Source: Schmidtea polychroa
Taxonomy: Eukaryota
Reading direction: 5' to 3'
DNA length: 64,000 nt
Assembly: GCA_044892525.1 (NCBI GenBank)
Contig: CM097887.1
Span: 23,870,001 to 23,934,000 of the forward strand
Shown here: piece by piece, positions 16,011 to 62,592 of the stretch
Layout: each line of letters opens with the position of its first letter
Numbering within the stretch: position 1 is the first letter of the stretch
Position numbers and translations under genes: made by a program
Notes under the pieces: generated by a model
What the model was told of the DNA's origin: nothing
The model's input: only the letters and a program-made list of their open reading frames with translations
The model's database searches: none

Positions 16011-17032
16011 ATTTAACCGAATCTGAATGTCAATATCCGAAAAATTTACTTATGTCGAAGTCTTCGTATATCTATCTAGGCTGTTATCTTAAATTGCTAG
16101 TGACACGACATAATACAATATCAAAATCAGCGACACAATATCGTGACATAAACCAATAAACTCAGTTATTAGCTGAGATAAAATGTGGTCAAAGTTAAAG
16201 TTTAGCTTTAATAATGATGCCGAATAATAAAAGAAAATGTTGTCTTGAGAATAAACTACTGTGAACCTAAGGGTTGTAATATAACCACCATGATTTTTGG
16301 GGGCGTGAAGCGCGTCCTCATAACGTTGTTTCAATCTTCTTCTTACTCTATGTTTGTACATTAATCATTTGTGGGACCAAAGCTGTTAATTACATAAACG
16401 CATTTCTTGATTTGGAGAATTGAGTGTAACCTAGGGCGATTTCTTCTCGAAATGTTGTTCTTGTCATATACACTCTTGTGTGAACCTGTAAAAATAGGCC
16501 TGGTTTAAAATGAATCGTGAACCTTTGTAAGACTCATCGGATTGTCATAAACTAAACTAAAATTTCCCGAACTGCGATCAAATCTAACTCCCTGTGAAAT
16601 GTAAGGATATGATTGATTTTTTTGATAAGATATGGCTGGAAGGTATCGACTTCTCCGGTAAAGATAATATGTAAAGAGGTTTGATTGGAATGATACTACG
16701 ACTGAGGGACGTTGACTAGTTCGTTAATCAAAGTTACTTGGTCAAGATCTTGACTTCATTTTTAAATTTTTAGATTATGTCGGAACCGAATTTGCCAACG
16801 CGCGGCCCGAACTTAAATGAATACATAAGGGTCCTGAAGAAGCGTATCGATAAGCTAGAAAGCACGTGGTTCTCCCCGCCACTTATGAAAGATGCAAATA
16901 AGAAAATCTTACGGCTCGAGCACTGCTGCGACAGTCTGCTCGAGGAGAGTTGATGTCAACGGCTCGCGATCAAGGTCCGGTCGGAGGCCCTCCACCGAGT
17001 CAACTCAGAAGCCGAAATAAAAGGTCGCATCA

Positions 17033-19084
17033 GTAGGTAGTTAGTAGCCCACTGCAGCAATGACCCCCCAGAGGGGGGGGGGGTTCTGCTGCAACTTTTT
17101 TTTTGCTGCAACTTTTGATTACGCAATTGCTGCAACTCACATTTTGCTTCCAGGGATTTTTAGTCCAAATTTTTTTTAACACACTATAGTGAGAGGGTCT
17201 CGATGGTCCTGAGAACTTCAATAGAAAAAGGTGGTCTACACTAAAAAACGTGGTAAATTTTGAAAATATTTTATTTATTTCTTTGAAAAATATTTCATAA
17301 AAATTACCATTAAAAATTATCTTAAAAATTATTCTATTAAAATTCCCATTAAAAATTAACTTAAAAAATTATTTCATAAAAATTTCCATTAAAAATTAGC
17401 ATTGAAAAATATTTCATTAAAATTTTCATTAAAAAATTTCAATTCTCAAACACCTTCTATTATTTCAACTTTTTGTTAATAAATTTTAAAATCTTACTTT
17501 AATTTACTTATTACATTACTTTAATTTACTTATTTAAAAATTATTACTATAATTTACTTATTTAAAATATTTGACCATTGATTACTTAATTTTAAAATTT
17601 GGACCTTAATTTACTTTAATTCAAAAATCTTAGCCCATAATTTACTGTAATTCAATTTTTAGACCCATTATTTAATGTAATTCAAAAATTTGGACCATTA
17701 TTTACTTTAATTTAAAAATCTTAGCCTATAATTTACTGTAATTCAATTTTTAGACCCATAATTTACTTTATTTTAAAAATTTACCACGCTTTTTTTAGTG
17801 TAGACCGCCTTTTTGTATTGAAATTCTCAGGACCAAGGAGACCCACATTAATTTACTTTGAAAATTTCATGCTTTTTTAGTGATAATCGGATTTTTGTTC
17901 TGAAAATAACCCGAGACCTTAAATTACCACTGTTTTTAGTGTACACCACCTTTTTGCATTGAAATTCTCAGGACCAAGGAGACCCACCTGAATTGACCTA
18001 GAAAAAATCATGCTTTTTAGTGATAATCGGATTTTTGTATTGAAAATATCCTGAGACCTTAAATTACCATGCTTTTTTATTGAGACCGCCTTTTTGTATT
18101 GAAAATCCCAGGACCATCGAGTCCCCCTCACTATAGTCTGAATAATCCTTGCCTTTTAGTGGTAGTCGGATTTTTGTATTGAAAAAATCCTAAGACTTTA
18201 AATTACCACTGTTTTTAGTGTACACCGCCTTTTTGTATTGAAAATCCCAGGACCATCGAGTCCCCCTCACTATAGTCTGAATAATCCTTGCCTTTTAGTG
18301 GTAGTCGGATTTTTGTATTGAAAAAATCCTAAGACTTTAAATTACCACTGTGTTTTAGTGTTGACCACCTTTTTGTATTGAAAATATCCCGAGACCTTAA
18401 ATTACCAATGTTTTTTAGTGTAGACCAGCTTTTTGTATTGAAAATATCCTGAGACCTTAAATTATCATGCTTTTTTATTGAGACCGCCTTTTTCTATTGA
18501 AATTCTCAGGACCAAGGCGACTCACCTTAATTTACTTTGAATATTCTATGCGTTTTTAGTGATGATCGGATTTTTGTATTGAAAATAACCCGAGACCTTA
18601 AATTACCACTGTTTTTTAGTGTAGACCACCTTTTTGTATTGAAATTCTCAGGACCAAGGAGACCCACCTGAATTGACCTAGAAAAATCCATGCTTTTTTA
18701 GTGATAATCGGATTTTTGTATTGAAAATATCCTGGTACCTTAAATTACCATGCTTTTTTATTGAGACCGCCTTTTTGTATTGAAAAATCTTTTTTGTATT
18801 GAAAATCCCAGGACCATCGAGACCCCCTCACTATAGTGTGAAAATTCCATGCTTTTTTATTGAGACCGCCTTTTTGTATTGAAAAATTTTTTTTTGTATT
18901 GAAAATCCCAGGACCATCGAGACCCTCTCACTATAGTCTGATAAAAAAAAATTTGGACTAAAAATCCCTGAACACAAAAAATGTGAGTTGCAGCAATTGC
19001 GTAATCAAAAGTTGCAGCAAAAAAAAGTTGTAGCAGAACCCCCCCCCCGGGGGTCATTGCTGCAGTAAGCTCCCAACTACTTAC
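17033..19084. mobile_element. Foldback-like non-autonomous DNA transposon (2052 bp) with long TIRs and an internal tandem array
   Basis: Inverted termini GTAGGTAGT.../...ACTACTTAC extend >150 bp. 8-bp TSD TCGCATCA at 17025-17032 and 19085-19092. Modular repeats (~140-bp higher-order unit) at ~17780-18950. No ORF. Confidence 0.85.
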
Positions 19085-20590
19085 TCGCATCAACAAATTC
19101 CCGATAGTAGACAAATTAAATGTATTTCCAATTTATCACCAGATAGGTGAGGCTAGCATCCAGTCCACCTCCAGATGCCACAGTAATGGCCCAGAATCAA
19201 ATCCTATCGTCGCACCCGACATAGTTAGTACGGTACCTATAAAAATGCAGTCTGTCTCCAACAATGTCACGGTACCCACCAGCGTATCTACTAAACCGCA
19301 AGACGTTCCGATACTATCCAATCCCCGAAAAAGAAAGCGTCTGGCCCGAGTGGAATGGTCAAAGAAGCGCCGAGACAAAATCGCCGCGTTAAAGGTCACT
19401 CTGTTCGCTGTCAAGGAGACCAGTAAAAAGCCAGCGCCGCCTAACCTCGTCGCATCGTCTCCAATGACTCTTTATCGAGTAGTTCCGTCATCCGTACCTA
19501 TACTCCTCTGCGATCAGCACCTACAGATGGACATCGACGCCCTAATGGGTCCTAGAAATTTGTTACGATCTGTTATTAGGGGAGAGCGGGTTAAAAAATG
19601 GTGTAAAAAGACCGTTACATAATTTCTGAACAGCCCATTTTTGAAATCGCCAATTATTCGAAGAAATTTTAAAGAAGTTTAGAGGTAATTCAAAAATAAT
19701 ATAAATTTCAGTGTCAGCCAATATTAAATTGATTCTGAATGTTCAAAAAAGGAACTCTCTCATTGGAAAACTTATCCTAGCTCAAAAGGTTAAAAATTTT
19801 ATTGAAAATTTTGTTAATATAAAGTATTGCAAACATTGTAGTAATCTTGAATAATCGTTTTTGTGTTGAGTTGTTTGACTTATTTGAATAAGGACACTGA
19901 GGAGTCAGAAATTAGTACCAATTTGTAATAAAAACCCAACAATATAAATTCAAACAATAATCTTTTAGTAACTTCTGCTTTTCCGAATTCTTTTTCGAGA
20001 TACTTATTACAGTTTTTCAAACCCAAATGTACTTTTTGTACTGTGTTTAATTAACCTAAGGTGTTTAGTTCTTTACCTTGAGTTACTTGATTTTTAGCAG
20101 ACTATCTTTCTTAAATTTATATATTTTTTCAGTGAATTTAAAGTAATCATATGTTAAGAAAAATTTGACAATTATTTCCTTCCAAATGTAAACTAATGTC
20201 TTTGTTTTGATTAATTTATAATTTACCTTTACTTTTCTAATATACTTTTTTGTGAATAGAAAAACTATATAAAAAAAATCTCAAAAGTTTATTTTTATTT
20301 ATATTGACAATTTTTATGAAATAACAAAGCAATATTTTTAATAAGTTTTGATAATTTAAAATTATTTAATAAAATTAATATTCGTTAACAAATTTATATA
20401 TAATATAAATTAAAAATCTTTTTTCTACATTAAAAGCTTTTTCCATTAAAATTTCCGATATGAAATTTTTGGTTGTTTAAACACATAATATGTAACATCC
20501 AAAATTTATTTCCAAACATTTTGTCCCGAATAGAAATTAATTATATTAGTTTTTTTAATAGTATTATCATCTTATTCAAAAGTTTTTCCA

Positions 20591-39611: not shown

Positions 39612-42025
39612 TTAACATCTCTTAAAGTCATTTTTAGAAAAAGTTCCGAACTTTACTTTCCGACGTTCATTTCTTGAGACGAATTCGCTGGCCACTGTTA
39701 GAAGACAGAGCTCGTCATTTTTTTCTTTGTGTATGTTCAGTACTGCGATACTATTAAATCTCTCTTGCGTCATTGAAGCACGGAGCCATGTTTTCAGACG
39801 CCTCGCTGCAGAAAACGATCTTTCACTTGATGCACTAGTCGCTGGATTAACGCTTATCAGTTTACATATAGTGACAACACCTTCAACAAGTAGTTTCTCT
39901 GTTAATGAAAAAGTGCGCACTTTTTCACATATGCCGTTGAAGCACTTGATTTGTGAATGTTCTTGGCACAAAGTTGCGAAAGCATGTAGTTGGGCTTGCA
40001 ATGAATTAATATCAAGGTCAGAAGAATAAGTTTCACTGACAAATTTGAATTCAGCGTTAGTGTTCTCCTTCTTTAAAGATTTGAGTAAAAGCGACTCCAG
40101 TTTCATATATGTGATAAAGCTCTCCTGCTGAAATCGTTGATCAATAGCTGCAATGATTAAATCGAATGCCTCAAAGTAAATACTTCGATAATGGTCTTCT
40201 GGGTTAGATGGAAATGACGATGTTCCACTGCCAATTTGATATCTAGCAGGACCATTTTTCCGACGTGGAAGTGTTGGTACAGAGATATCTGGCTGCAACT
40301 TTTGTTGGTAGAGTACTTCTGTGTAAAAATTTACAAAAATCTCATCGTTTCGCTTACTCTGCAGTGTCTTCTTAACCACTTCAGCAAGATGCTGTCCTTC
40401 TGTTGCTGACACCTTTGTCTTCTGCAGAGCTTTTGCAAGGTTGTCTGTATGACGAAATATGTTTTAGGCTAAATGTAATCCAAAAAAAGAATTCAAAATT
40501 TTGCATTTGCGCTTGAACGCCAATAATTCTGCACCGCACATCGGATTGCAACTTCATGGATAAGCAGATATCCCATTCTTGAAAGAGCGCTGAATAGTTG
40601 TCTAATGTACGCTGACAGCATGTGGATCGAATTGTCCATCTGGTTGGACAGAACATAATGATTCCATAACTATCTGACTCTTCACCTTCAATATTGTCTT
40701 TTATTTCACCCAGAAGATTTTCACGGAAAGGAGAATATTTTATAAGCGTCACAATTTCTTTGGCTGTATCCAATGTATCTGATACGAGTTTGCATTTAGA
40801 TATCATGTCCTTCACACCCAGGCTTAAAGAATGCCCATGGCAATGTGTGACGAATGCATTTGGTTGAATGCTCTGTATCTTTTTTGCAACACCAGTCTTA
40901 CAGCCCATCATGTTGGCAGCTCCATCATAGCACTGTCCTCTGCAGTTATTTAAAGGTAGCTGTAATCTTAGTAGGATGTCGTTGATTGCAGAAAAGATTG
41001 TTTCTGCCTTAATATCATGCAGGTGATAGAATCCAATGAAGTCCTCCTTAATATTCAAATCTTCATCAACCCATCGTAGACAGAGAGACAATTGTTCTTT
41101 ATTAGAGATGTCGGTATATTCGTCACATATAAGCGCATAATGCTTCACATGGTTGATTTTTGAAACAATTGTGCGAATTATTTGTTGTGACATTATGGAC
41201 AAAATTTCATTCTGTATGTCGTGGCTGGTGTATTTACTCCCTCTTCGTTTAATCCATTGGGTTAGTGCCGCATCGTCTCGAGCTCTGAGTTTAATCAGCT
41301 GAAAGAAGTTTGATTCTTCATCTGTATCTCCTTGAATGGCTTGTCCTTGTCTCCCAAGGTACATTTTCAATTAGCTTTATAAGGCATCGACGATTATCCT
41401 CCCGATCTTTCTTCATACTCTCTGAGAACATTTCCATAATGGGACGATGTGTGTTTGGAATTGTTACTTCAAAATTTATGGCAGTTTTATGACATTCAGA
41501 TAACTGATGTTCTCGAAATCGCATTGTAGCCTTCTTCCAATTTGAAAATCCGTCAGAAATGAATGCATTTTCTTTATTTCTAGCTGAATCCAAGTTCATA
41601 AGTGAATTTTGTTTCTTGCACATGAAACAGACAACAGTATCACTTTCAATCCGATAGTGTAACCACGGGAACTCACGAAACCAACAGCTCTGAAATGACC
41701 GATTCTGCTTTCCAAAATTTCTTTTCGGAAATTCAATATTCATTGGTTGGAATAATTCCATGTTGGGTTGTTGAGTAGTACTGGTTAATTCAATAAGTTT
41801 ATTGCTTTTCTCAGGATGATTTCTTTCTGAACATGGATGAGAACTTGGTACTATTTCTTTTTCAATAACTTCTTGTGGTAACGTTATCATATGACTTTCC
41901 TCGTTAATCTCCACAGTGCTGGTTGTTTGAAGCGGAGTAAATTTGGAAACAAAAATATCGAGTGTGGACTGCCTTCTTTTCTTGGGAGGAGGATCTGTAA
42001 AGATAAAACAGTTATGTTTGAACAT
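39612..42025 (-). pseudogene. ZMYM1-like hAT transposase (TTF zinc finger, DUF4371-type region, hATC dimerisation), two frameshifts
   Basis: RSFQSCWFREFPWLHY...CFMC...GFSNWKK; YTSHDIQNEIL; ICDEYTDISNKEQLSLCLRWVD; PATSASSERSFSAARRLKTWLR. Confidence 0.9.
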
Positions 42026-42565
42026 TTATAAAATATGAATTCTAATTCCTAATAACCGAAAGCATTTAAATAACTGTTGGGCTAAGCTTCGAGAGTATTA
42101 GAAACCAGGTTAAAGATAAATAAAAAAGGATAGGGTAAATTCCCCGAAAAAATATAAGAACAATTAAAATTAGATAACAATAAAAGAAAATAAGAAAATA
42201 AAGGAAATAATATAAATAATAAATTAATAAAGTTAATAAGATGAAAAGTAAGACGGAAAAGAAAATTACCTAACATCTATGATAGCAGAAGGAAATAGAA
42301 TAATAAATTTAAGGAAAATAAATAAGATACTAAGAATAAAATAGAAATAAAACCATTTGCAAACGTTTATATAAAGTAATTAAAACAAAAGAAAATTATA
42401 TTATAAGCAAATAACAATAAAGTCATAAGAAAAGCGAGGGAAAAATAATAAAAAATAGGAAAATAAATAAAATAGTAATAAAAATAAGAAAAGTCGTAAA
42501 AATCTAACATATTACACTAAAAAACATAAAAATAATAATAAACAATAATATTACACACTAGTCGC

Positions 42566-42689
42566 GTCCTGATTGGACGGAAAATACTATATAAGCAATG
42601 AAGAAAATCTGTAGAGTACCATTTAACCACTATACTCTACAGGTAAAATTACTTTATTTTATTAACCATTTAACCACTATACTCTACAG
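42566..42689 (+). promoter_or_regulatory. Putative Pol II promoter and leader of copy B: inverted CCAAT, TATA, hairpin, splice donor, 24-bp direct repeat
   Basis: GTCCTGATTGGAC 42566-78; TATATAAG 42588-95; 10-bp stem CTGTAGAGTA/TACTCTACAG 42609-42642 then GTAAAA; repeat at 42619-42 and 42666-89. Same order and spacing in copy C. Confidence 0.6.
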
Positions 42690-44816
42690 GACTTTAGAAC
42701 TACGCAACTATTCTACCGAAACTCTACAGAAACTACTCTTAAACAGCTATACTAATATTTCAGGAACTAAACTTTCAGACACTTACCTAATATTCCACAG
42801 GACTTACTTTCTATCGGATTTTTATTGGACTAATAGTGTATCGAAAGAGGACTCATAAAAACCATTTCTAATACTCTCGGAGGAAACAATCATAGTAAGC
42901 AGGATGTTTGTATTTTGTTATTGATATTTTTATATAAATTGGATAATAAAAACTAATTTATTCTTAATAAAAAGTTATAAGCACAAATGGTGCTGACGAC
43001 GGCGTTGTCTGGAGATCGAATATGATGCGGAGGTTCAGATGGATATTCACAGAAAAGTATATGAGAATGATTTGAAACGAGAAAATGGAATCGGGAATTT
43101 TAGTGAAATAGAGTTCACCAGAAGCGTAACATTAATACTATCGTATAGCGTCATGTTCGAGATTCAGACGGCGTGGTCGCCAGGTATATAATTTTATGAT
43201 TTTTAACGAATTTAATTCATTCAAATGCATTATGCCATTTATTAATGTCCATTCGATATACCAATAAAATTGAGATGCGGAGAGATGGAATCGTCCTTCC
43301 TGACGGTCCAGGAGTGGTGGTAGCAATGTATGCCGCTCTTGGGTGGGTCAGGAGGGGTGAGGACATCCAGAGCATGAAGTAAGAGAGATTAGAGGAGTTT
43401 TTCTTTCACCGAGTGAAGTCTGCGATCGTCAGCGAAAGTATTCCGTCAGTAGTGAAGTTGAGATCACGATGTTAGAAACGAAAATAGTAAATCCAACAGA
43501 ATTTTCCGGAGCAATTGAGATGAAGTGAATCTACTCTTTTAGGTCGAAATCATATTCCATTAAGTTCAAATTGGACATAATTACTTCCTCAGCATTCTTT
43601 CGTCGTAATGAGTTGCACAGTCATAGATAATAAACTTCTGTTTTAGCACAAATTCCAAATAGATGCGTATGAACGATCGTTAGGTTTTCTTATAGAGATT
43701 TAGGTCGCCAGAGCGTTAGCGATGAAACCCAGTGCCGATGCACTTTTTAAGTTGGATTGTTGACTTTTAAGCTACTGATAAGCGTCGATTCCCTGAAAAT
43801 AATGTAAACAACATCAGTATTCATTATCAGTTACCTATGGTCAATATGAGCGAAAGCGCTATCAGCATTAGCAGTTGGTTGTCGACAAAAATTTCAGCTA
43901 GATAAAAGTTATCCGATTATGAATCGACCAATATTAGAAAACTGAGGTAACGTAATAATTTCCACCACGATTCATCCATTGAGTGCGTTGACAGCTGCTA
44001 TCATGAATTTACAACACCACAGAGATTAGATGATTAGCTTTAGCTCATTCACAACCTTCCGAATCACACACACACACATACGTAAGGCCTTTACTCATAA
44101 CAACTTTAGTAGATAATGCCATAAGAGTACATACACCCACATGCTGGAGTGAAATTCGTTCTAGAAGATGACAGTAATATAAACGGCAACGTTCTTGTAC
44201 GACGTCATAGATTGCATAATAGCATAGGTATCGCCTGAGCTAGTAGAACGGTATGTAGAAATAAATGAGCAAGCAATACTTTTCGTGCAAAGACATTTTA
44301 CTTGCAAACGGTATTTCACAATACACACGGATAGAGATATTTCCATACAAAAACACCTTAGGTTGTGTCGTTATGACAACGAGTCCAGCGGAGATTTGAA
44401 AATAATAATGTATTAAAACTAAATTGACAATTTAATAAAATTAACAGTGCAAAGAAAAATGTAATCAAGTAACATCACAAACCCGATTAATGACACTATA
44501 TTAACATTGTGAATAGCAACGATATATTTAACCATAATCGACACCCCGAATCTGAGATGAGATTGATTTAGACGAGCAAATTAACATGGTTATTCTCATT
44601 TTCTTTTAAATAAATTACAGAGATTTGTGCGAATTATCATGGATGTTTGGGGCAATGAATGAGTTTATGAACGAATGTTGAAGGTATGTGTGAGATAATT
44701 TCTCTTTTGATTGCATTTTTATATGGAATGAGTGTGGTAAAACTAGCGTCGTGAAAGCACGATCGTCGATCAAACTCGATGTCAAATTGGCCAATAAAAA
44801 TATTTTTAATCTTTAG

Positions 44817-45578
44817 ATGACTACCCCAATCAATACCGAGAAAATTCTTCGTCCTTGTTTTTCCTGCGCGGACAAAAATGCTGACATCGCACAGCTTCAC
44901 CTCTACATCGGGGCACTAAAGAAAAGAATCGATCATTATGAAGGCACGTGGTTCTCCCCGCCACAAATGAAAGAGGAAAAGAGCAAGATACTGCGTCTGG
45001 AGCACTGCCGAGACAGTCTCCTAGAAGAAAGTCGGTGCCAGAGGCTAACCATAAAAGCCCAATCAGAGGCACTCCATAAAGTTTACTCGGAATCAGAAAT
45101 AGCGAAACGAGTTCGCGAGTATCCAGTGCAAGACGGGACTAATGTGTTCCCGATCCACCACCAATCGGCACAGTCAACGACAACTGGTTGTAAGGGGCAT
45201 GGGCCGCATCTGCCGCCAATTCCCGCTCCAATTCTCTCGGGCTATAGACCCATGGCAGGAGGCTCATCGGACCCTATCTTGGCTCCGATTCTAGTACCTC
45301 AACCTATGTCACAGGCTCCAGTAGATACTATCAAGCCACGTCGGAAACGAAATAGATTAACACGTTCGGAGAAAAATCAGAAGCGCAGGAACGCCATGGC
45401 GGCGCTAGAAGCTTCTTTATCCATGGCCCAGTCCACAATCAAGGATATCTCAGCCACCCACGTAATTCCGGCCAAGGAGATATTCAAAGTGGTTCCAGCC
45501 GAGGGCATTAAGTATCTTGTGGATCATAGGTTGCCGGTAGACATAGACGAAGTATTCGCCGATGGAGATGCGTTCTGA
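44817..45578 (+). CDS. ORF253 (copy B): novel protein with CxxC plus coiled coil, Pro-rich linker and basic RRKR helix
   Basis: Intact ORF, colinear with 50254-51015 (~70% identity by eye); many synonymous differences. Confidence 0.9.
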   Translation: MTTPINTEKILRPCFSCADKNADIAQLHLYIGALKKRIDHYEGTWFSPPQMKEEKSKILRLEHCRDSLLEESRCQRLTIKAQSEALHKVYSESEIAKRVREYPVQDGTNVFPIHHQSAQSTTTGCKGHGPHLPPIPAPILSGYRPMAGGSSDPILAPILVPQPMSQAPVDTIKPRRKRNRLTRSEKNQKRRNAMAALEASLSMAQSTIKDISATHVIPAKEIFKVVPAEGIKYLVDHRLPVDIDEVFADGDAF

Positions 45579-47807
45579 AATTCCGACCCGACGATGGGAT
45601 CCATCTCTCATTTCGAAAAGACCTTTAACTAATATCTCTGTATCTAACAATTCGTCGGTATTGTGTAATTAATATTTATTGCATGTTGGTGTACGAATTT
45701 TCGGTCTCGATAATTTTTCTTTGAATATAATAGAAATTTTATTTTTCTTTATTTGTTGGTTGAATGATGAGAATGATGAGTGAAAGGCATAATTGAATTG
45801 TTGGACTGGAACAGTATCCTTGAATGAAGGCCGTCCTCTTGGACCAGGGTCGGGCCGATTGCAAATGTAGGAACGGGTAAGTCCTTCTAAGGCACCATAG
45901 AACCGGAACTGAGAGGGAGTTAGGAGTAGTCTTAAGATAGAGGCTCACCTGCTAGCTTCTTCCGACCCGTGTGGGCAGCACCAACGTAGAACATCACTAC
46001 GGGCTCATACGTGGGAATATTTGCATGACCATGGGGCGTGTACGAGGGAAGCGTCTGAGCGGAATGATGAGAGTTTGTGTGCATATTAGTAATAGTTATC
46101 CATTTTCCCCACGTACACCCAACATAACTAAAAACGATACCGTAGCTTTTGAAAATTTTCATGTTCCCGAAGCACAGAAGGACAAAATCCAACCCATATA
46201 GGGATGCTACTTTTTATTATATTTAAGAATTGCACAAAATGGGAATATGAAAATACGTGAAAATTAAATAGATCACAATTCTTGAAAATTTGGTTGTGAA
46301 GCAGGCTTACAATAAATATCCTCAGAATTAAAAATCCATTTTTTAAATAATAAATTGCTGTTTTTAATTCAAGAACTTCACGTCAAAGCAATCGGTTCAT
46401 TCATAATAAAAAACTGATTATCATACATTATTAATTGAAATAATGATTCAGTGCTCACCTGTCATTGTTAATACTCGAATATATAAATGAATTCAAAACG
46501 CGTAGTAGTAAATTAGTAGTTCGATAAAACAATTAAGAAGTCAGTTATAAAATATATAAATTGAATAAAGTCAAATGAAATTATGCAGTACGATTGATAA
46601 AACCAGCAAGTCTTTAACTCTTAATAAATTTCAATATGCTTCTTTTAAATCATATGAACATACTGGCATACCATACACTGCCAAAGATCGCTGTGCTATG
46701 TTCACAAGATTTAGTGACTGAAAGGAAGGGTCCAATTTTTTTTCTGTGGCAAGATAAGTGGGGGGGGGGGCTAAAGCCCCCCAGCCCCCCCCCCGGCTCC
46801 GCGGTCCCTGTCAATAATAGTATAATAGTATAATTTAGAGATGAGTTAAAAAATATTCAAATTAGCACTTAATATACAATTTCCAAATGTTTGATGCATG
46901 TGAAAATGGAGAAGGATATATAGCGTAAAGTGGATGTCAAATACAATTAATTATATTCGAAACTGTTTTACGGTATCGGTAAAATAGTCAGCTATTAAAA
47001 TAACTAAATACTTTAAAATTTGAAATTATAAATATCGGTTAGATGTGATTCTTTTTTTTCAATAAAACTAGGTAAATTGTCAACTAAGACGACCGATAGA
47101 GCAAAGAAAGCGCAAAAAAGTATAATTTAAATCATTTAAAACACCAAATTAAACAAAAAAAATATAGCAAGAAGAAATAAGTAAAACAGAATTAATGAAA
47201 TTAAAAATCGCAAGTTACATGAAACATAAGCTAAGAAGCATTAAAACAAAGAAAAAATAGCCGAAAAATACACAAATTCAGAAAACACCTCCATATCCAT
47301 GTGTTGGGCCAAGCTCGGAAAGTGTTGAAAGTCAGATCAAGGACGAGGAAAAGGACCATAAGAAGGAATAAAATAAATAAAAAATAAAATCTACGAAAAA
47401 CTACGGGGGATAAATAGGAAGAAATAAATTAAATAACAATAAAGAAATAGAAATAACGAAATAAAAATAATAAAAACTTTTAAGATAGAAAATAGGAAAA
47501 AAGGAAAATCACCAAATAAGCCTAACAATAAGAGAAAAATGAAATAACAAAAGAAAATAAACGAGAAATTAAAAAGATAGAATAAAAATAAAATCGTAAT
47601 CAAATAAATACAATGACTAATTAAAACAAATAAATCATATTAGGTAAAAATAACAATAAATTCGCAGGAAAAACAGGAGAAAAATAATAAAAAAAATAGG
47701 AAAATAAATAAAATAATAATAAAGTAAGAAAAAGTCATAAAAAACCTAATATATTACATTAAAAAACATAGAAATAATAAATAAAAATAACATTACACAC
47801 AAGTCGT

Positions 47808-47934
47808 GTCCTGATTGGACAAGAAATAGTATAAAAGAAATAGGAAATATCTGTAGAGTACCATTTAACCGCTATACTCTACAGGTAAAAAATTTTTATT
47901 TAAAACATTACCATTTAACCGCTATACTCTACAG
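47808..47934 (+). promoter_or_regulatory. Putative promoter and leader of copy C
   Basis: GTCCTGATTGGAC 47808-20; TATAAAAG 47830-37; hairpin 47851-47884 then GTAAAA; 24-bp repeat at 47861-84 and 47911-34. Confidence 0.6.
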
Positions 47935-50253
47935 ACTAGTTTAGCAGCCGATTAATTCACTTCAATAAAACCATTCATCAGAACCTACTGGAGCTTATTC
48001 AGACCCACAGGAACTAAATTTTTACAACCGAGGTATTTCAGTAGAAAAGGACAAAACCACTTTGAAAAACTTTGAATTCAACACTTTCCGAGAGAGTTTC
48101 GGTAAGAGAGATTTGATTTTGTATGATACATATTTAGAATATTATAACGAAATAATAAACGATAACAATTTTATTTAAATAAACATTATTTTACAAAAGA
48201 TGCCTCTTTTTCTATGGAACTGACGACGGTGTCGTCCGAGGATCGAATGTGATGCAATGAATGGAGAGGAATTGCGAGGGGTGTAACGGGGAATGAATAC
48301 TGGAAGCATAATTTGTTAAAGCCAACCGGATAATATCCCTCGGAGTACCGTCTTTATTAACCCAAGGGTTATGGAGTCATATATTGTAATCTGAGGCATC
48401 ATATTCGAGGTTCGGACGTCGCGGTTGTCAGGTAATTTTCTTTGATGTAATCAGACTTTCGTAATATTGAGTAATTATTTTCATTTTGCACATAAGTTAT
48501 TATTATATATTTGAAAATGCGAGAGATAGATTCGTCCCTCCCGACGGTCTAAGAGTGGTGGCAGGAATGTTTTGCCGCTCTTAGGTGGGTCCGGAGGGGT
48601 GAGGACATCCAGTGAACGATATAAATGCAGTAAGGGAGATTCTTCCATCGAGTGACATGTGTGATCGGCATAGAGAATGCTATTCTTGAAGGAGGCGAAA
48701 ATACGGCTTTAGATGCAGATAGTAAATCCACCGAGATTTCGTCCAGAGAAACTATGAAACAAAATCTTCAGCATTATGCGCAATCATATTTCGTTGAGTC
48801 CAAATTCGACCTAGTTACTTCTTAAGCCTTCGAATTTCGGTGGGTTGAATATGAAGGAATCATAGTCTTCAGATACGAACGAAAACTTCCAACGAGATCT
48901 ATGTAGACTGTCACTAGGCTTTCTTTTCGAGATTGTGATCGCTAAGACGTTAACGACTAAACCCATCGTCTGTGTACTTTTGGGGCGAATTGTCGATCTT
49001 AAATCATTGATAAGAGTTTTCTGCTCAAAAATAGAGTAAACAAATCAGGATAACGTATCAATATATTCACCGCCCACACGAGAAACAAATTGCCAGCATT
49101 TATCGGACTATCTTCGAGCAATTTCAGTCAGAGTCGAGCCGATCGTAGTAGAGAATTGATAGTATTTCCGCGAGTAAGATAAGACGGGAATTGCCCAGTG
49201 CATAGGTTGACGATTGTTATCTTAAATAATTGTTGTGAATGAGAAACCCGATAAATTTAATCCGACATGCTTAGGAACATTTCTTGTCTGATCGTTCACT
49301 CACGATAAATCAGTTCTGCTCTCACCATACGATTGATATCACCACCCGTCCAAGTAAAGTAAATACAGATCCATATGGTGTCGAATGGAAGATGCCAACT
49401 TATCTGCACACTAACCTACTCCGCTCAAGGCCATATAGGAATCGATATGTGACGGTAGTACTAAGTCTGATTACCGAATAATGAATCGATGATATACATT
49501 TTCTGAACTAGCGGGGTGAGGCGTAATACAACAAGAGTGGTTACATCATATCAGAATATAAACGTCACAAATTCACCCGACATAACTACAAGTATAAAAT
49601 CGGTCAGCGAATACACACCTACAAATCTGTCTGAGGAGTAACACTAGCACACATAGGGAAAGATGCCGTTATGCAATCACACACAGGCAAGCGTCACTAT
49701 AACGACGGTTATGGCGCGTTGTCTGAAATAATAAAAATATAATTAATCATGCAATTTTAGCAATATATTATCATGAATTTTTGTGACAACAATCGGGCAG
49801 AGATGATAGAAATAGCTTCGAGAGCAATTAAATTAGTTGTACCATAACGTGGCGTACATATAAATTTCCCAACGCACAGTCACGAGGAACTTTCGATCGA
49901 TAATAGTAAGGGATATAGTAACGGGTGTAGAACTAGTAATGACGAGCGAAATAATGTATTTCCCCTGGACATCACCTATTCCGAAATCAAATGCAAAGAC
50001 TAGATCTAATTTAACTCATTCAGCCTTGAACATTCCCCGTTTCCTTTTCCCTTAATTTGCAAAGATTGTTGAGATAAACTCGAATGTTTGTGATTGATGA
50101 ATGGCGAATACCGATAGTTGATATACAAAATTTTCAGAAGATTATTATTTTTATTTTTGGTGGTATGATTTGTAGAATTGCGAGACCGCTTCCAAATTAC
50201 GCATGTTAATCGAACCAATGATACGAACCAGCATGAACTAATTAACTCTTTAG

Positions 50254-51015
50254 ATGTCTACTTCGGCCGGTACTACCAAGGAACTTCGTCCATGCTTCTC
50301 CTGCGCGGATAAGAATGCCGACATCGCGCAGCTCCATCTATATATCGGGGCTCTAAAGAAACGAATTGACCTTTACGAAGGAACGTGGTTCTCCCCGCCA
50401 CAAATGAAGGAGGAGAGGAGCAAAATCCTGCGACTAGAGCATTGCAGGGATAGCCTGCTGGAGGAAAGTCTTTGCCAACGGCTCACAATCAAAGCCCAGT
50501 CGGAAGCCCTCCACAAGGTCTATACGGAGGCAGAACTGGCTAAGCGGGTACGGGAATTTCCCGTCTTAGATGGGACCAATGTCTTCCCACTCCACCACCA
50601 TTCAACCCAAACATCCACATCCAACTGTCAGGGGTATGGCTCACACCTGCCGCCCATCCCAGCTCCCGTACTGTCCGGTTATCAGCCGTTGGCAGGTGGT
50701 CCTTTCGATCCTATCTTGGCTCCAATTCTAGTGACTCCTGTCGCCACATCCGTCGCGGATAACCATCAGCCATCCCGCAAACGAAGAAGGCCAACCAGAG
50801 CCGAGAAAAATCAGAAACGCCGAGATGCAATGGCGGCACTCGAGGCGTCGTTAACTGCAGCCCAAACCACCCTTAAGGGAATTTCGTCTACGCATTCCAT
50901 CCCCTCGAAAGAAGTATCCCGAGTAATCCCTGCAGAAGGCGTCAAATTTGTCTCAGACCATAGACTTCCTGTGGACATCGACGCGATGATCGCTGATGGA
51001 GAAGGTTTCGCGTAA
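50254..51015 (+). CDS. ORF253 (copy C)
   Basis: Intact 253-aa ORF; ATG directly after TTTAG as in copy B. Confidence 0.9.
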   Translation: MSTSAGTTKELRPCFSCADKNADIAQLHLYIGALKKRIDLYEGTWFSPPQMKEERSKILRLEHCRDSLLEESLCQRLTIKAQSEALHKVYTEAELAKRVREFPVLDGTNVFPLHHHSTQTSTSNCQGYGSHLPPIPAPVLSGYQPLAGGPFDPILAPILVTPVATSVADNHQPSRKRRRPTRAEKNQKRRDAMAALEASLTAAQTTLKGISSTHSIPSKEVSRVIPAEGVKFVSDHRLPVDIDAMIADGEGFA

Positions 51016-51775
51016 CGTGATTTACTATCGAACGAGTTTATCCCTCGATTCTCAGATCAACGGTTGCGTAATGGAACGACAGTATTGTGTGTTTTAGTAG
51101 TGATCTGTAACATATTTGTTTGGTGATGATAATGTACCCCTTTGTTTTGTTGCGTCAATATATATTTTGTTGTGTGTCTAACTTCTTGGTGGTGAAGATT
51201 ATTAAAGCACATGAGTATGCACTCGGGGTGACTGAAGGGATGATGTGAAAACAGAGCGATTTAAGCAAAGGGTCGTCCCTTTGGACCAGGGTCGGACCGA
51301 GAAACGCGAAAAATGATGGGTAAGACCTTCTAAGGCACCTTGGAACCGAACCGCGAGGGGGCTAGCAGTAGTCCTAAGGCAGGGGCTCACCTGTTAGTCA
51401 ACTCCGACCCGTGTGGGCAGCACCAACGTGGGGACATCACCACGGGCTCACATGAGGGAATATGAGTAAAATCACGTGGAATATGCGGGGGAAAAGTCCG
51501 GAGCCGAACGAACACGAATGATAGGTCAGGTGATGAATTTTCCTTATCTCCCCTCATATGCCAACACATGGAATAAGGATGGTGTAAAAAGGCGATCATT
51601 CAATCAATCAGGATTGAAAAGAAAAGAAATAATTTTAAAACAAATTAGTAAATTAAAACATAAATAAATAGACCAATCAAAATGATTTGAATTTGAAAGA
51701 TAAAAATAATTAAAAACACTAGATTTGAATTTGAAAGATAAAAATAATTAAAAACACTAGATGATTCCTGATTAG

Positions 51776-54100
51776 TGTTGGTTACCTGGGGATGAGTTTT
51801 CCTCAAGTATCCGCCACGACCTAGCAGTAATCTCCCACATGTGTGCCCATGATGATAAATCACGTTGGTGCTGCGCACATGGGTAGGAACTTACGAACAG
51901 GTGAGCCCCTGCGTTAGGACTACTATTCGTAACATTCACAGTACTGAAGGACTTGCATCTTAATTTTCTAAGAACCTGTCTCTGGTCCAAGGAGACAGTT
52001 ACGGAAATTCGAAGTTCATCCACCGATTAGAATCCTAAGGGAGAGCCTTTCTCAATATCGGATTTCCTAAGATAACTTGACAGCGCAACAACTGATTACA
52101 AAATATCTATTAATTAACACACAAGTAACTCAAATAAGTATATAAAACACGCATTAATTACATGACACTCAGAATCAAAGGTGGTCAGTTTGATTCGACA
52201 GAAAATGTTGGTTTCGCAACTACGTATATATACAGGATGGTTCTCTACAGATCAATTCTCCTTCAGCGAGCATCGCATCGATGTCGGTTTGCTTATGTGG
52301 GTTGACTGGTGTTTCGATTAGCGATGGTGGAACTACGCGATACGTTGCTATGGAGACAGATTCGACAGGATATTCACTAGGCGGCATCGTATTCATTGAT
52401 TGAGTTGTATATAAGGTAGCTTTGAGAGCGGCCATCTCATCTCGGCGTCTTTTTGTGCGCTCTGCTCGAGTCGGCGTTTCCTCTTTCTGGGACTTGGTTG
52501 TATCGAAGTCTCTGGTTTAACTATTGAAGTAGCAGAGGTTGTCTCTTTAGGGAGGAGGTTCGATGACTCACTGACCTACTGTACACCCTTTAAGAAAGGA
52601 ACGACGACAGGTGGCAGATCAGGACCGTGACCGTAGCAGTTGGAAGCTGGCCTTGTTATTACTTCGTCCGCTCGATGATGTATAGGAAATACATTCAATT
52701 TATCTTTTACCGAGTACTCTGACTCGTTGTTTTAACTCAGTTTCTGTTGGGCCGAGATTTGATCGACAAACGGGGTTTAACCACTTACATTACTAACGAA
52801 ATCGTTAACCCGAGTGAAAATTAATTTAAATGAGGTTCGAATAAAAGTAGTAATTTAATTTAGATGGTATAAGTATACCTTACATATTAAAATGAATATT
52901 AGTTTCATGAAAAATAAGTTTAAATGAAGTTTGAGTCAACATTAAGATTAATTCGAAGAGGAGTAAATTAATTACCGGTTGGTAGACAAAAGAAAACCTT
53001 CCCTCTCAAAAAATTGACTTACGGTAAATATTAATTAAAATAGCATTTCATCCAGGAATTGGCATAGTAAATTTTAATTAAAATGGTATTTCAAATTCGA
53101 GAATTGGATTATGTAACGTTAGGAACGCTTAGAATCGATGTTTATCTGTAACGAAGATGGTTAATAAATTAAATTTCTGATGAACGCAGAGTGACATGAC
53201 AGGATGTTTAATATCAGTGTGGAATATCGTCTCGCCAAATCTAATCTGTGCGGATTTCTCTGGGGTCGTCATTACCTGATTCTAAACATTACTGAAAATT
53301 GTTTATGCTTTCCATATCCGGCTTGGCTGCGTTCAACTCGATAAGTTATCATTTGGTAACAAAATGACTGGATCAGTGTTTCTACTGATTCACAGAATTA
53401 TGGCGAGTGTACTTAACCTTTGATGAATTTACGCTTGTCGAAAAATGAAATAAATTTTGCATGGGAAATGTGGAAATTAGTGGTTTTGCAGAGTCACCTA
53501 GATTGACATTCGAAACCTTGCTTCTGGTTAAAAATCTCATATCAACTACTCTGAAGGTACGATTTCTGAGTGTAAGTATCTATATCTTGAGAATATTCGA
53601 TATATTCATTTTATTCTCTCACTGGACATATTAAATCGACAAAGTGGTAGCCGTCATTCAATTTCTACTGGGTGATTATGACAAGAAATTTCTGCATTGC
53701 GAGTGGATTTTTCGAACCGTTCTACGCTAGATGACCAAAAGATAACATATGGATGAGAAAATCTATCTCCTTAGCTACTCGCTCTAGTCTACATTGTCAC
53801 TCTCAGATTTCATTGCCTGTGAGGCAGGAAAGACAGACAGCACGCACCCTACCCACGCCACCGACTTCACATGCCAGTCTCTTCCAGTGAGGCAGATAGA
53901 TGGAACATCCTACCCCCGTCCATACTACATAAACCTCTACATGTGCAACTCATGCACGCCCATGTCAATGCATGTGTGCACGATAGCAATTTTTCTTTTA
54001 TCAAACATATTGAATGTAATGCAGTGATTCACATTAGAGCAACTGTTGTCGACAACGTTTGGTATCGACAATTGTTGCGCTGTTAACATTTGGTGTTAAG
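51776..54100 (-). mobile_element. Copy D of the ORF253 family (inverted, ORF 5'-truncated)
   Basis: Terminus TGTTGG at 51776; conserved 3' block at 51825-52000; ORF remnant 52220-52735 (KLNVFPIHH...GHGPDLPP...RKRKR...DEMAALKATL). Far end not found. Confidence 0.75.
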
Positions 54101-54572: not shown

Positions 54573-56247
54573 ATTAAAAGAATAACAATAAAAAACTAAA
54601 TATAATGAAAAAAAGACGCAAAATACAACACCACTTAATCCTTATTGGTCGAAATCAAGACAATAATTATATAAATACGAGCATCTCTGATTGATTCTTC
54701 AATGTTTTTCCTAACAAATCTATAGGTATTTCTATAGGTATTTCATTAGTATTAGCTCAATAGGACTCCAGTTAATTAACCGATTCCATTTTCGAGGACT
54801 TCACAGTAGAACGATTTGATTGATCATTGGAGGGTGAACCGTTTGGAAAATGTAAAATTTTCTATTATTTTTTATTTTTACTAATTTGTATGTGTTTATT
54901 ATCTGTAATTTCCTTTTCCTCACATTCATATATGATATTAGATAATAAATAATGGTAATAGCGATGACTTTCAATTACATCAACAAATGATATTTAATAA
55001 TAGTGACAGTAATTTCAATAATTTTCCAATAGCTCATTTCGAATGCATATTGTTATTATGATATGCTATTATCATGGATGTCCCCAGATTGGAATATGTT
55101 CGTGAACCGTTGGCATGGACAGCGGATGTTGACCAGTTTGGTACATCAGTTTAAGGTGTAAAATGAGGAGTAATTTATAATAGAAAGGTGTGGATTTTAT
55201 TGAGTGCCAAAAGCAGTTTTTACGAATGGTAATCCAACAGAAATGAATTGGAAGGTTTTCACGGTGATAGAGATCGATCGATAGAAAGGACTTGTGAGAC
55301 GGATGAGCTGATCGGTGATAAAATTGGCCTAGGTGGGCGTAATAATCTATAGAAATTGTTCAATTTGAAATACAGTGAATATAACCTGTACGTAACCTGC
55401 CGGATTTCCTGAAACACAAAGCATAGTCAATAACTTAATGACTATCGCTATAAGCGTTGCACAAATGAATTTTCTAATAATTGTGGTTATCATTAACCTT
55501 ACGATCTACTAGTAAAATTACCGCAAATGATAAATATTGATATATTCGTTACAATATATTGTGATTGTATAAGTAGTGGGGACAACTAGTTCCCGGAGTT
55601 TTTTTTTGTCGTCATCCCCCGGTTAAATCAACTCTTTCCTTTCCCACTTCTTCAGATGGTTGGGTAATTTGAATGATGATAATCTATAGAATATTTTTCA
55701 ACAGACTCACCCTCCGAAATTTACCAGAACTGTCCTTAAACACCTTCGTTGTAGAAATGGCAGAACCAACGCTACCGAGATTGGGACTCAATCCGTGCTT
55801 CTCATGCGCGGATAAAAACGCAGCTGTAAAACAATTCCAGTCGGAAGTTGGGGCCGTAAAGAAACGCATCGACTTCTTAGAAGGAACCTGGTTCGCCCCG
55901 CACAAATAAAGGAGGCGAATCGAAAAATCTTGAGGTTGGAAAACTATAAGGACAGCATCCTAGAAGAGAATCTCAATATGAGGCTCACAATCAAATCTCA
56001 ATCTGAGGCCCTACATCGTATCTATTCTGAATCCGAATTGCGGAAACGTGTAGCGGAGTGCTCCATCTCCGATCGAGACAATATTTTCCCAGTTCATCGT
56101 CTTCGTGACGATCGTGAGTTAGCTGCAAAGACGTCTTGTCTTAATCATGTGGTGGAATCTCCTCCTCTAACCACACCAGATGTCCTGTGTATCGGAACAA
56201 GTATGGTTCCGTCCAAAGTGCCAGCATCAACCTATGATAACAACGAA
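54573..56247 (+). mobile_element. Copy E of the ORF253 family (frameshifted, 3' part replaced by the non-LTR element)
   Basis: A-rich leader, ATTGG (~54645), TATATAAA (~54668), tandem TCTATAGGTATT. ORF from ATG 55757: NPCFSCADKNAA...KKRIDFLEGTWFAP...LRLENYKDS...KSQSEALHRIYSESELRKRV. Confidence 0.75.
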
Positions 56248-59200
56248 AATTTTTGACAAGATATTCGAGATTCCCGCCGTTAACCAGTGCTTAGCAGAAT
56301 TGCCCCTATATAGCATTCAAGAGCACTGGGCAGAAATAACTAAGATTATTTCATTTGAATACTTCTTAATGTTTTTTTCAGGAAGCAATGAGACTACGAT
56401 TCAGGAACTGGAGGAACATTGGGAGAATATTGCCTCGATAGTCAAGAATTATGACTCAGTAACCCATGATTATCTATATCAAAGTGATGCATACTCTTAC
56501 AAAAAAAATGAAAATGCACTACTAGTTTTTTCAAAACTTTCCGAAATCTATAAAAAAAAGGTAATTAATAATCAGAATTACAATACTAATAATTTTAAAA
56601 ACTCTGTTTCGAAAAATGGGATTTTTTCAAATCTAAGAATTTATGGAGATGAAAAATTCTCTTTTAAAAGTATTAATAATATTAAAAATTTCGGTTTTAA
56701 AAAAAATAGAAAATCTTCAAAACCAATTTTTTACAAAAATAAAAATTTTTCAAATTGGAAAAAAAATTTAGGAAATAATAAAAATGATAAAGTTTTTTAT
56801 AAAAATGATGTTTTTTGTAAAAAATCTATTGAAAGTGAAAATGTAAAAAATAAGAGAAAGGAAACGTCTAATATGTTTAAAGAATCATTTGAAAAACCCG
56901 AAATTTTTAATAATAAAATTTTAAATAACTTTATAAATACCAATTTTAAAAAAAAAAAACATCTTTTTAATTTAAAAAATAATAATGAAAAACACCTTTT
57001 TAATAACAATAATTTAAATTATTTTTTTAAAAATAAAAATGAAAAATTCTTAAAAGATTCTGATATTAATTTGTTTAAATATAATAATAAGATCACAACC
57101 TATGATAACAACGAATCTTACCCTTTTTTTTGATAATAAAAGTACTATCCCAATAAAGATTAATGAAGCCCCAATCATAAATGCAAAAAAAGATAATATT
57201 ATACTCAATCATATAGAAAACTTAAAAGATATTGGGGACACCATTTTCAACAATATTAGGGATCAATTCGTTATTATAGGGAAAATTGATGTACTACCAC
57301 TCCCGAAAATTTTTAGAGAAGCATTCTCCACTATAAATGCAAAATACGAACAACTAATAGCAATTATAAGTAAAGGTAAGACTAAATTAGGAAAGAGTAT
57401 TTTTAATATGAAGCTGATCCCCAAAGTTATTCCAAATAAAAATAATAGAATACCTAAACTAAATATTGATTATATAAATACCTTTATTAAAAAACTTTTC
57501 ATAGATATTCATACAGTATTAAAGGGGATAGATAAGAAAACCAACTATCATATTATTAAAGACTTTTTCTATATTTTAGTATTAAAATTTAATAAACTTT
57601 GTCAATTTTTATTTTTTAAGAATAATGGTAAAGTATTTAATGAAACACCGCAGCCATTCCCTCTTGTCCATAATAATAAATCTGCCAATAAAAAAAAAAG
57701 AAGGTCACCTTCAGTGACGATAAGTCTCATAACTCTAGATACTTCAACTCTGCCAATAGATACGCTAAGCTTATTGACCTAAATGATTCTAAACCTAACA
57801 AGCATCTTCCACAAAAAACTAATGAGATGCCAACAACCCCTTCAGCAACTTCATCAACACCCAAAAACAGAAACACCTCTAAAAAACCGCATTTTTCTAA
57901 ACCAATCCCGAACAACACTCCGCCTGAATCCATTAGACCAAACTCTGAATTACTCAAAAAAGTGATAAGACCAAATATTAAAAATGTATTAGGGACATTT
58001 AATATTACGGAAAAAATTTGTGAATCTATCCTCCCCCAACCGCTTATAAAAAAACCTGAACTTAAATCAATTCCAAAATGTGACAATAACAAAGTACCGT
58101 CACCTTCGCCAAAAAAAACAGATAATTGCGACCTAGATAACCATTCGAACTCTGACCTTTTTGCCGATACCTCCTTAGTAATTAAGCATACTAATACGGA
58201 TATAGATAATATCATCTTACACAACAGCTCCTCCGATAAGTCATTCAATGAATCAATCATCGTACGTAAATCTGCTAAACCTTCTCCTCTTGATAACACA
58301 TCTAAAAACGATAATACCTCCTTCTCTGTAAGCGTTGAAAACCCTAAGTCATTGTTCCCATTATGTGCTTCCATAATCCAAAATGACGATGTAACCAATA
58401 CCCCTAAAAAATCCCCTACCAAGTCCAGCAGTGAGCAATCTATCTACGCTATTACTTCCACCCCAATTGCCTCAGCTATTAATGAACAAAAATCCTTTCA
58501 AAAATCCTTACAAATTAAAGGAACTACTATCCAAACTAACCACCCAAAAACTTTTAATATAGCAAAGACAACTAAGATAAGAACTTCTAAAAACTTTAAA
58601 ACTCATGATAAGAATAATAAAGCTCTCTATTTTTTTGATAGTAGGGGAAAAATGAACTGTAGAGCAGGATTACATAATCCAACATTCTGTGGATCTATAG
58701 GTGTATATTCGAGAGAAATGTTGATTGCACATGCTAAGGATGTCCATGGAATTGATTTCAATTATGATTCGACCATTGACTGCTATCAATGTAAACCAAA
58801 GCAAGGAGGGGATAGATCCACAATGAACGTAATAAATTTTAAAAATTTGTACAAACACATCAAAGATTTCCAGCACCATTGTGAGATTGACAGAGCCTAC
58901 CAAAAGGATGTTACCGTAGAAATAACCCCCAAGCATGAAATTGCATGCCACATCCTAAGTAAGAACATAAAAAATAAGTGCTACACCACCTTCAACCATG
59001 AAATCCCAATTGAAAGTATAATGGCGCATATGAAAAAACTGCACAAAAAACTAATCTTTAACATAGATAAGAATATCTATTGCTACTGCGGGGAATGGCT
59101 GCCTATTCATCAAATTAAAAACCATATAAATGATTTTCATTTAAATAACCTAATTGAACTCAATAACGAAGTAGGTGAGGGAAATAGCAATGGGAATAGA

Positions 59201-62200: not shown

Positions 62201-62587
62201 ATGGATTCAAAATGGACATCGAACGCACGCCACAGGGAATCGAAACTACCTTAATACCTGACCTACTCATCAGATCATCGAGAAATAAAATTACCCACAT
62301 TGTAGATATCAAAGTACCTTACGAGCAAAGGGAAAATTTTAAAAAAGCGGATGCAGATAATTACGGAAAATATGCCAATTTGGCAATCGAAATAGAAAAA
62401 ACTCATAAAGTAAAAACTACATTGTCTACTTTGATAATAGGTACTCTAGGCTCTTGGTACAACAAAAACGACCAAGTTCTCAGTAAAATAGGCCTCTCCA
62501 AAACTGAAATAAAAAGCCTGGCAAGAAACGCTTGCACAGCTGCGGTAGTAAGCAGCTATCATATCTTTAGAGAACACACCCTTAAGG

Positions 62588-62592
<5 letters not shown>
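56248..62592 (+). mobile_element. NeSL/R2-superfamily (RLE-type) non-LTR retrotransposon, near complete
   Basis: C2H2-like zinc fingers (~58650-59150), Ulp1-like domain (59327-59750), RT (QGCPLS, YADD), CCHC knuckle CRQC...H...C (~62075-62130), RLE nuclease PDLL...DIK. 5' boundary approximate. Confidence 0.92.

Follow-up and report, generated by a model that had tools for sequence, protein, structure and literature searches.

A gene under strong purifying selection inside the long terminal repeats of a giant gypsy-like element, apparently of Burro type, in Schmidtea polychroa

The locus and the element that carries ORF253

The window analysed here is a stretch of 64,000 nucleotides of the Schmidtea polychroa genome (assembly GCA_044892525.1, contig CM097887.1, positions 23,870,001 to 23,934,000, forward strand), and it holds two full-length copies of an open reading frame for a protein of 253 amino acids, ORF253. 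Each of these lies inside a solo long terminal repeat (LTR), and broken older copies of the same repeat are found in the same window. In window coordinates these are:

16777..19622, + strand: broken older copy A, split by a 2-kb MITE-like insertion
42075..46124, + strand: solo LTR B, 4050 bp, TGTTGG...CCAACA, target duplication TAAC; close copies align end to end
44817..45578, + strand: ORF253 copy B, an ATG-to-stop frame of 253 aa inside solo LTR B
47302..51566, + strand: solo LTR C, 4265 bp, target duplication CATG
50254..51015, + strand: ORF253 copy C, a 253-aa frame whose protein is 74% identical to that of B
51776..52760, - strand: broken older copy D, an LTR 3' end with the C-terminal part of the ORF (about 52250-52760), frameshifted
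55757..56244, + strand: broken older copy E, an N-terminal piece of the ORF carrying a stop and a frameshift, followed by a non-LTR retrotransposon

The surrounding DNA is rich in other mobile sequences. LTR B sits in a decayed hAT transposon; decayed hAT transposase (DUF4371, hAT dimerisation) is seen at 39612-42025 on the minus strand, and a G/C-rich terminal repeat-like end at 46760-46811. The insertion that splits copy A (17033-19084) has inverted ends that are long but imperfect, contains repeats of 140 bp and made a target duplication of 8 bp, and the non-LTR retrotransposon next to copy E (56180-62592) encodes, in several frames, a reverse transcriptase (RT) and a weak match to an Ulp1-type protease (E 0.03). 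A MULE transposase fragment lies between 77-nt inverted repeats at 23771-24475 (minus strand). Further away from the LTRs, an intron-less ORF for a 360-aa protein kinase of CDK-like appearance (4512-5594) is followed by a perfect 127-nt inverted repeat (5883-6141), and a 1033-aa ORF at 9871-12972 contains internal 39-nt repeats and matches no Pfam family significantly.

Searching the source assembly with ORF253 produced 6978 candidates at first look; 150 of them were scored. Forty-two of the scored matches form 21 same-strand pairs, 26.08-26.56 kb apart, and all six of the pairs that were excised proved to be pairs of LTRs, 4.0-4.2 kb long and 99.5-100% identical, that are flanked by 4-bp target duplications and share one primer-binding site. 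Full elements are about 30.5 kb in length, carry an env and are bounded by ORF253-type LTRs; a whole LTR with its target duplication was also recovered at eight of 12 further loci tested. When one interior was scanned with Pfam it revealed a RING ORF and one very long frame that encodes gag, CCHC, viral fusion glycoprotein, protease, RT, RNase H, integrase and ankyrins, and, after this giant frame, a RING-MATH ORF and three unnamed ORFs. The giant frame places env between gag and protease and keeps the gypsy order of RT, RNase H and integrase, with ankyrins (Pfam for one element; long frames in two). MATH occurs only in the separate RING-MATH ORF (Pfam, one element), and Pfam detects no BIR domain among the nine interior ORFs of an element of this family.

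The primer-binding site starts 7 to 8 bases past the LTR end and is identical in this and in a second LTR family described below (L035:8626-8650, L113, L115, L118, L106); we take it to be that for tRNA-Pro. No long purine run is evident ahead of the 3' LTR. At one place in the assembly (G000:C1:145063312-145163760) four ORF253 matches stand in tandem with a spacing of 33.2 kb, suggesting either a tandem array with common LTRs or a segmental repeat.

Burro is the published name for giant gypsy-like elements with LTRs that occur in planarians (PMC6431247). The accessible text of that paper describes Burro/GYPSM1 as over 30 kb long and present in thousands of copies, with LTRs, a huge frame running gag-CCHC-env-protease-RT-RNase H-integrase-ankyrins, and MATH and RING cargo. 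The element described here is alike in size, in its multi-kilobase LTRs, in the order of its giant frame, and in its ankyrins and MATH/RING cargo, and this match in layout identifies the carrier of ORF253 as a Burro-type giant gypsy element. The two differ in that Burro1/GYPSM1 has MATH within the polyprotein together with BIR cargo, and the ORF253 family has neither. They also differ in that the accessible Burro text (PMC6431247) names no gene inside the LTR, whereas the present element has one. No account of a gene within a Burro LTR was found in the literature searched, which included the accessible parts of PMC8532177 and PMC11410931; the original Burro paper, Repbase and supplements lay outside its scope, so that a prior annotation is possible. 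Planarians and Burro are absent from the main text, in its accessible part, of an errantivirus paper (PMC13524379).

Selection on ORF253

A sequence-only reading of the window had proposed that ORF253 is an element-encoded protein under purifying selection, and this proposal holds. Its count of 17 synonymous and 1 non-synonymous differences between B and C in codons 11-43 (LRPCFSC...YEG) was exact on recounting, and the ORF is GC-rich as it said (49.7% and 53.1% in the two copies, 31.9% for the window). Its description of the two 253-aa proteins as being without indels was wrong: a one-codon gap near residue 161 is offset by one extra C-terminal residue in C, and their colinearity is only apparent. 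Likewise, the high divergence that it ascribed to the neighbouring DNA applies to most of the LTR, where mean identity among seven subfamily representatives is about 0.3-0.5, but not to the promoter region, to one of the hairpins or to the 3' end of the LTR, which are conserved at 0.7-0.85. The CxxC that it listed is kept in 60 of 61 intact copies, and TWFSPP and ILRLEHC, which it called invariant, tolerate rare exceptions, their columns being kept in 58-61 of 61.

Over the aligned ORF the B and C copies show a pS of 0.82, which is saturated, against a pN of 0.15, and within residues 11-115 pN is 0.039. For the codon model, 62 intact full-length frames were chosen by protein score and one exact duplicate was removed. 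On the resulting 61 copies a single-ratio model gives an omega of 0.143 overall, with values of 0.059 in residues 11-115 and 0.10 in residues 176-253 and a higher one, 0.40, in the linker, so that dN/dS across copies is far below 1 rather than near it. Since these copies had been picked by protein score, a second test was made on copies picked by their non-coding upstream DNA only. Among 30 B-like loci obtained in this way, the 24 closest pairs have a pN/pS of 0.79 and more distant ones 0.19-0.21, the pairs not being independent of each other, and six loci carry a stop or frameshift. In the young family the frame is open at 30 of 30 loci (18 distinct), with pN/pS of about 0.3. Near-neutral change between close pairs, combined with low pN/pS between lineages, points to selection in replicating element lineages and drift after insertion, and not to a domesticated host gene. 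ORF253 is a genuine gene on which strong purifying selection acts between element lineages, and we regard its location in the LTR together with this selection as practically certain.

Mosaic LTRs (L113:3656-4414, L183-L195) were also observed, in which B-like upstream DNA and N-terminus are joined to the ORF body of another lineage; in some pairs of copies the synonymous divergence, at 0.30, greatly exceeds the upstream divergence of 0.05.

Predicted promoter, splicing and RNA structures of the LTR

ORF253 is read in the sense of the LTR, ending about 540 bp before the LTR end, and lies downstream of a predicted CCAAT/TATA promoter. The LTR features around it, given for copy B, are:

42569..42595, + strand: inverted CCAAT box and TATA box, predicted promoter; same spacing in 7/7 subfamily LTRs, at LTR position about 490-530
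42619..42689, + strand: end of predicted exon 1 (donor after 42642) and a 47-nt mini-intron, the tail of which repeats exon 1
42895..42971, + strand: second donor-like site, GTAAG, then AATAAA at 42966, a candidate poly(A) signal and the inferred end of R
42990..43185, + strand: conserved RNA stem of 30 bp around a large variable loop; double-sided changes at 6 of the 30 pairs among 8 sequences
43284..43368, + strand: conserved RNA hairpin, about 85 nt; 32 pairs, 6 of them compensatory, 97.6% of cells paired, 9 related sequences
44800..44816, + strand: splice-acceptor-like pyrimidine tract and AG abutting the start codon
45829..46016, + strand: conserved RNA structure of several stems at the 3' end of the LTR; double-sided changes at 16 of the 50 pairs among 9 sequences

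In each of the seven subfamily LTRs a donor near position 560-580 is followed by a predicted intron of 45-50 nt. The end of exon 1 and the intron tail are 0.98 identical within a copy and 0.61 between subfamilies (7 LTRs), and it is because these two segments evolve in concert that the RNA 5' end is placed there. AATAAA is found at LTR position 813-892 in all seven LTRs, within poorly conserved AT-rich DNA, and a second candidate poly(A) signal, AATATA, lies 150 bases past the ORF stop (near 45724). Use of the first signal would place ORF253 in U5, and use of the second in a long R; with the bounds drawn from such motifs only, the gene probably falls in one of these two regions, ahead of the primer-binding site. 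LTRs that contain protein-coding sequence are familiar from MMTV sag and the HIV nef overlap, which lie in U3, upstream of the transcription start, in contrast to the R or U5 position suggested for ORF253. A splice donor upstream of the poly(A) signal is described in the accessible text on the foamy-virus LTR (PMC3694450), and the same arrangement is predicted here.

The acceptor-like site is tied closely to the frame. YAG directly precedes the ATG in 56 of 61 copies and is separated from it by one base in the other five, compared with a background of 11 among 359 LTR ATGs. An unspliced leader would present 44-59 upstream ATGs ahead of ORF253 (three LTRs counted). Taken from the sequence pattern, ORF253 is likely to be expressed by splicing from the LTR promoter. 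In contigs of four presumed-RNA runs on a young LTR no GT..AG joint from a leader donor to the acceptor was present beyond the first 520 bases of that LTR, and one of these runs covers all 30 bins and may be DNA; a search for intron-less DNA copies with two exact junction patterns, out of many possible, gave no match to either. The stems at 42990..43185 and 43284..43368 fall within the predicted intron, between the leader donors and the ORF acceptor, and the covariation score of the second is equalled by none of 500 shuffles. A conserved donor-like site, GGGTAAG, is located near 45876 inside the RNA structure at the LTR 3' end. Rfam returned nothing near threshold. An antisense ORF in the middle of the LTR was considered and rejected, the longest minus-strand stop-free frames being 42-123 aa and not common to the LTRs.

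The protein, its relatives and its possible role

The predicted layout of ORF253 is a CxxC, a coiled coil, an H-x-C-x-x-H motif, a proline-rich linker, a basic helix with a nuclear localisation signal (NLS) and an acidic tail. AlphaFold2, run with a 37-row alignment, places helices at residues 18-42, 49-89, 92-101 and 183-214 (pLDDT about 85-93), with low confidence elsewhere and overall values of 65.6 for mean pLDDT and 0.34 for pTM; a dimer prediction with zinc scores 0.63 against 0.49 for its control. The H-x-C-x-x-H motif is kept in 58-61 of 61 copies, an NLS-type pattern at K177-R180 in 58 of 61, and an acidic hydrophobic-x-x-hydrophobic-hydrophobic pattern at 242-247 likewise in 58 of 61. 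Residues 176-214, with ten K/R, are predicted to be helical, and residues 236-253 have a pI of 4.05. Neither bZIP (N-x7-R/K-x9-L) nor bHLH (E-R/K-x-R-R-x-x-hydrophobic-N) occurs at any position in half or more of the 61 copies, nor does an export signal of class 1a, 1b, 1c or 2; class 1d matches are present in 47 and 34 of the 61 copies, and these, like class 3 and reverse matches, lie in helical or coiled-coil heptads. A possible bHLH link through a CLOCK match in PDB sequences was discarded as not significant (E 0.27).

Sequence, profile and structure searches found no known homologue or fold for ORF253. Pfam gives no family at E up to 1 for B or C and no RRM, esterase, PHD or ORF1 match; a word-indexed protein search confirmed none of 544 candidates, nor any of 7994 among longer proteins; the ESM Atlas held no usable match, the best E among PDB sequences was 0.27, and Foldseek with the weak model as query returned nothing at E up to 0.001 from viral and PDB libraries. 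Of 151 pattern matches in metagenome contigs none was confirmed. HMMER, run against 1.84 billion representatives, gave a single match, P0001 (ENA, 157 aa), which is a relative of the second LTR family and came from three second-family rows in the query alignment A1; against a profile of the first family only it scores 9 bits, and it was the only hit of a second-family profile among 4578. P0001, a second-family homologue, is 36% identical over the alignment and suggests that the family extends beyond the present genome. ORF253 thus has no confident match to a gag, ORF1 or host family. The sequence-only reading had also pointed to ORF1 proteins of CR1/L2 type, zinc-finger/leucine-zipper proteins in which CxxC likewise precedes a coiled coil; this lead is not supported, as ORF253 has a single CxxC, no ORF1 family match and a place in a gypsy LTR whose element has its own CCHC gag. 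For LINE ORF1p in general (CR1/L2/L1), ORF253 is inside a gypsy LTR and is not the first ORF ahead of an endonuclease-RT.

The second LTR family, with an LTR of about 5.3 kb, has at least 150 scored matches. One of its elements has MATH inside the polyprotein, env, ankyrins, and TRAF and BIR-RING ORFs, and by its MATH in the polyprotein and its BIR ORF, both features of Burro1/GYPSM1, it is closer to Burro1 than the ORF253 family is. Its LTR (L106:1500-6843, G000:C2) contains a 121-aa ORF and a 152-aa homologue of ORF253, each right behind an acceptor-like AG. The 121-aa protein has an acidic start and a C-terminal end, RGRPRK, that we take to be AT-hook-like. The 152-aa protein has in common with ORF253 the coiled coil, an EGTWFSP hinge and the basic helix, and has no CxxC, H/C motif or acidic tail. 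Pairwise BLASTP gives an E of 1e-11, and independent profiles of the two families match at 94.6% over 55 columns (28-31 bits); a comparison at 99.8% was set aside as circular, as alignment A1 holds second-family rows. Judged on sequence the relationship is modest, and with position and context in agreement we consider the 152-aa protein a distant homologue of ORF253.

These features make it probable that ORF253 belongs to the class of nuclear regulators of an element's own expression. The sequence-only reading had offered a regulator or a nucleic-acid chaperone; the former is the best class, and the latter is less needed where the element's own gag has CCHC knuckles. Within this class we tentatively prefer, at rather less than even probability and by analogy, a nuclear coiled-coil activator of the element's own transcription resembling foamy-virus Tas. 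The acidic tail and the proline linker speak for this choice, as does the fact that no export signal stands out clearly; the AT-hook-like end of the 121-aa protein from the second family's LTR also counts in its favour. Transcription would start from the CCAAT/TATA promoter near LTR position 500-550, and a short leader would be spliced to the AG right before the ATG, bypassing the 44-59 upstream ATGs. The N-terminal CxxC and coiled coil may then oligomerise, possibly around zinc, the basic helix at 176-214 may provide nuclear import and nucleic-acid binding, and the acidic hydrophobic tail may recruit co-activators, as in Tas; a solo LTR like B or C would still hold the complete cassette but decay once inserted. 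Bovine foamy Tas is described in the accessible text as a 249-aa protein in which an N-terminal segment serves for dimerisation and a C-terminal domain for activation (PMC4929722). Tas/Bel1 and ORF253 are alike in size, about 250 aa, and layout, an analogy only, since no homology to Tas/Bel1 was found in Pfam, among PDB sequences or among viral structures. The Tas gene lies between env and the 3' LTR and has an internal promoter, whereas all of ORF253 is within the LTR, on the downstream side of the LTR promoter. The activator reading also has its difficulties: the absence of bZIP and bHLH patterns leaves DNA binding unsupported, the acidic motif is short and of a kind common by chance, the structure model is weak overall, and activation cannot be the common function of the whole family when the 152-aa homologue is without acidic tail and H/C motif.

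The conserved RNA stems in the predicted intron suit an RNA-binding role equally well, and a protein acting like Rev, Rex or CERV is a possibility nearly as good as the activator, if itself rather doubtful. Here a spliced early product would oligomerise, bind the LTR-intron stems through its Arg/Lys helix, and promote export of unspliced genomic RNA or the choice of the correct 3' end. Given the predicted splicing, the two covarying stems between leader donors and ORF acceptor would be present only in unspliced RNA; several internal ORFs also stand behind AG sites, which suggests that the element needs export of intron-containing RNA, and the part common to both LTR families is precisely the coiled coil and basic helix. 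There is also a precedent in CERV of the C. elegans gypsy element Cer1, described in the accessible text as a novel accessory protein made from a spliced mRNA, with a zipper, an NLS-like basic motif and conserved cysteines (PMC10309623). CERV nevertheless differs from ORF253 in being 517 aa long and interior-encoded, with exons common with gag and globular domains (PMC10309623), and ORF253, compared with CERV and HIV Rev, is without a canonical export signal: those of class 1a, 1b, 1c and 2 are not conserved, and class 3 and reverse matches coincide with coiled-coil heptads. The stems could moreover act in cis alone, in packaging, poly(A) control or direct host export, and ORF253 has no sequence or fold link to Rev-type proteins. 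It is unlikely, though conceivable, that ORF253 serves as a host-modulating or anti-silencing coiled-coil adaptor, whose conserved C-terminal motifs bind a host chromatin, piRNA or ubiquitin factor in the manner of the BIR, TRAF/MATH and RING cargo. Such modules are numerous in these elements, short linear motifs are conserved in the low-confidence tail, and Burro1 is up-regulated on loss of SMEDWI-2 according to the accessible part of PMC8532177; nothing specific, however, points at a host target, and the other cargo is recognisably host-derived whereas ORF253 has no host homologue. A particle-associated, ORF1-like nucleic-acid chaperone is more improbable still. It would help in copying the roughly 3.5 kb that separate the primer site from the 5' end of the RNA, an unusually long stretch for first-strand synthesis if the RNA starts at LTR position about 550, and a basic helix with a coiled coil would fit, but the element already has a gag with CCHC knuckles, RRM, esterase, PHD and ORF1 family matches are absent, and the NLS-like and acidic motifs are not needed for such a role. 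The reading of ORF253 as a domesticated host gene, or as a frame kept open only through overlapping constraint, is largely refuted and has very little probability left: GC above host level and the many solo LTRs with open frames might suggest it, but amino acids are preserved despite saturation at synonymous sites, change between the closest copies is nearly neutral, older copies are broken, and no antisense frame is kept.

What emerges here is a strongly selected, unnamed accessory gene in an unusual place of a known kind of element. We also entertain, as a speculative and rather doubtful proposal, that Burro-type LTRs follow a plan unlike that of other retroelements, with a regulator gene between transcription start and primer-binding site in a U5 or R of roughly 3 kb. 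Each solo LTR would then be a promoter-plus-gene cassette, thousands of which could supply an element-wide switch in trans, and the protein would found a family specific to planarians, retained across Burro families even where their LTR DNA can no longer be aligned. If the gene is downstream of the start site, first-strand synthesis must cover about 3.5 kb ahead of the first jump, and a solo LTR stays a potential protein-coding unit. In the annotation of these genomes, LTR-borne ORFs could pass for orphan host genes. If regulatory, ORF253 would be one of very few such accessory proteins known from gypsy elements, CERV being the precedent found. Burro elements are major parts of planarian genomes and targets of piRNAs, and ORF253 offers a concrete candidate, accessible to RNAi, for a regulator by which they switch themselves on.
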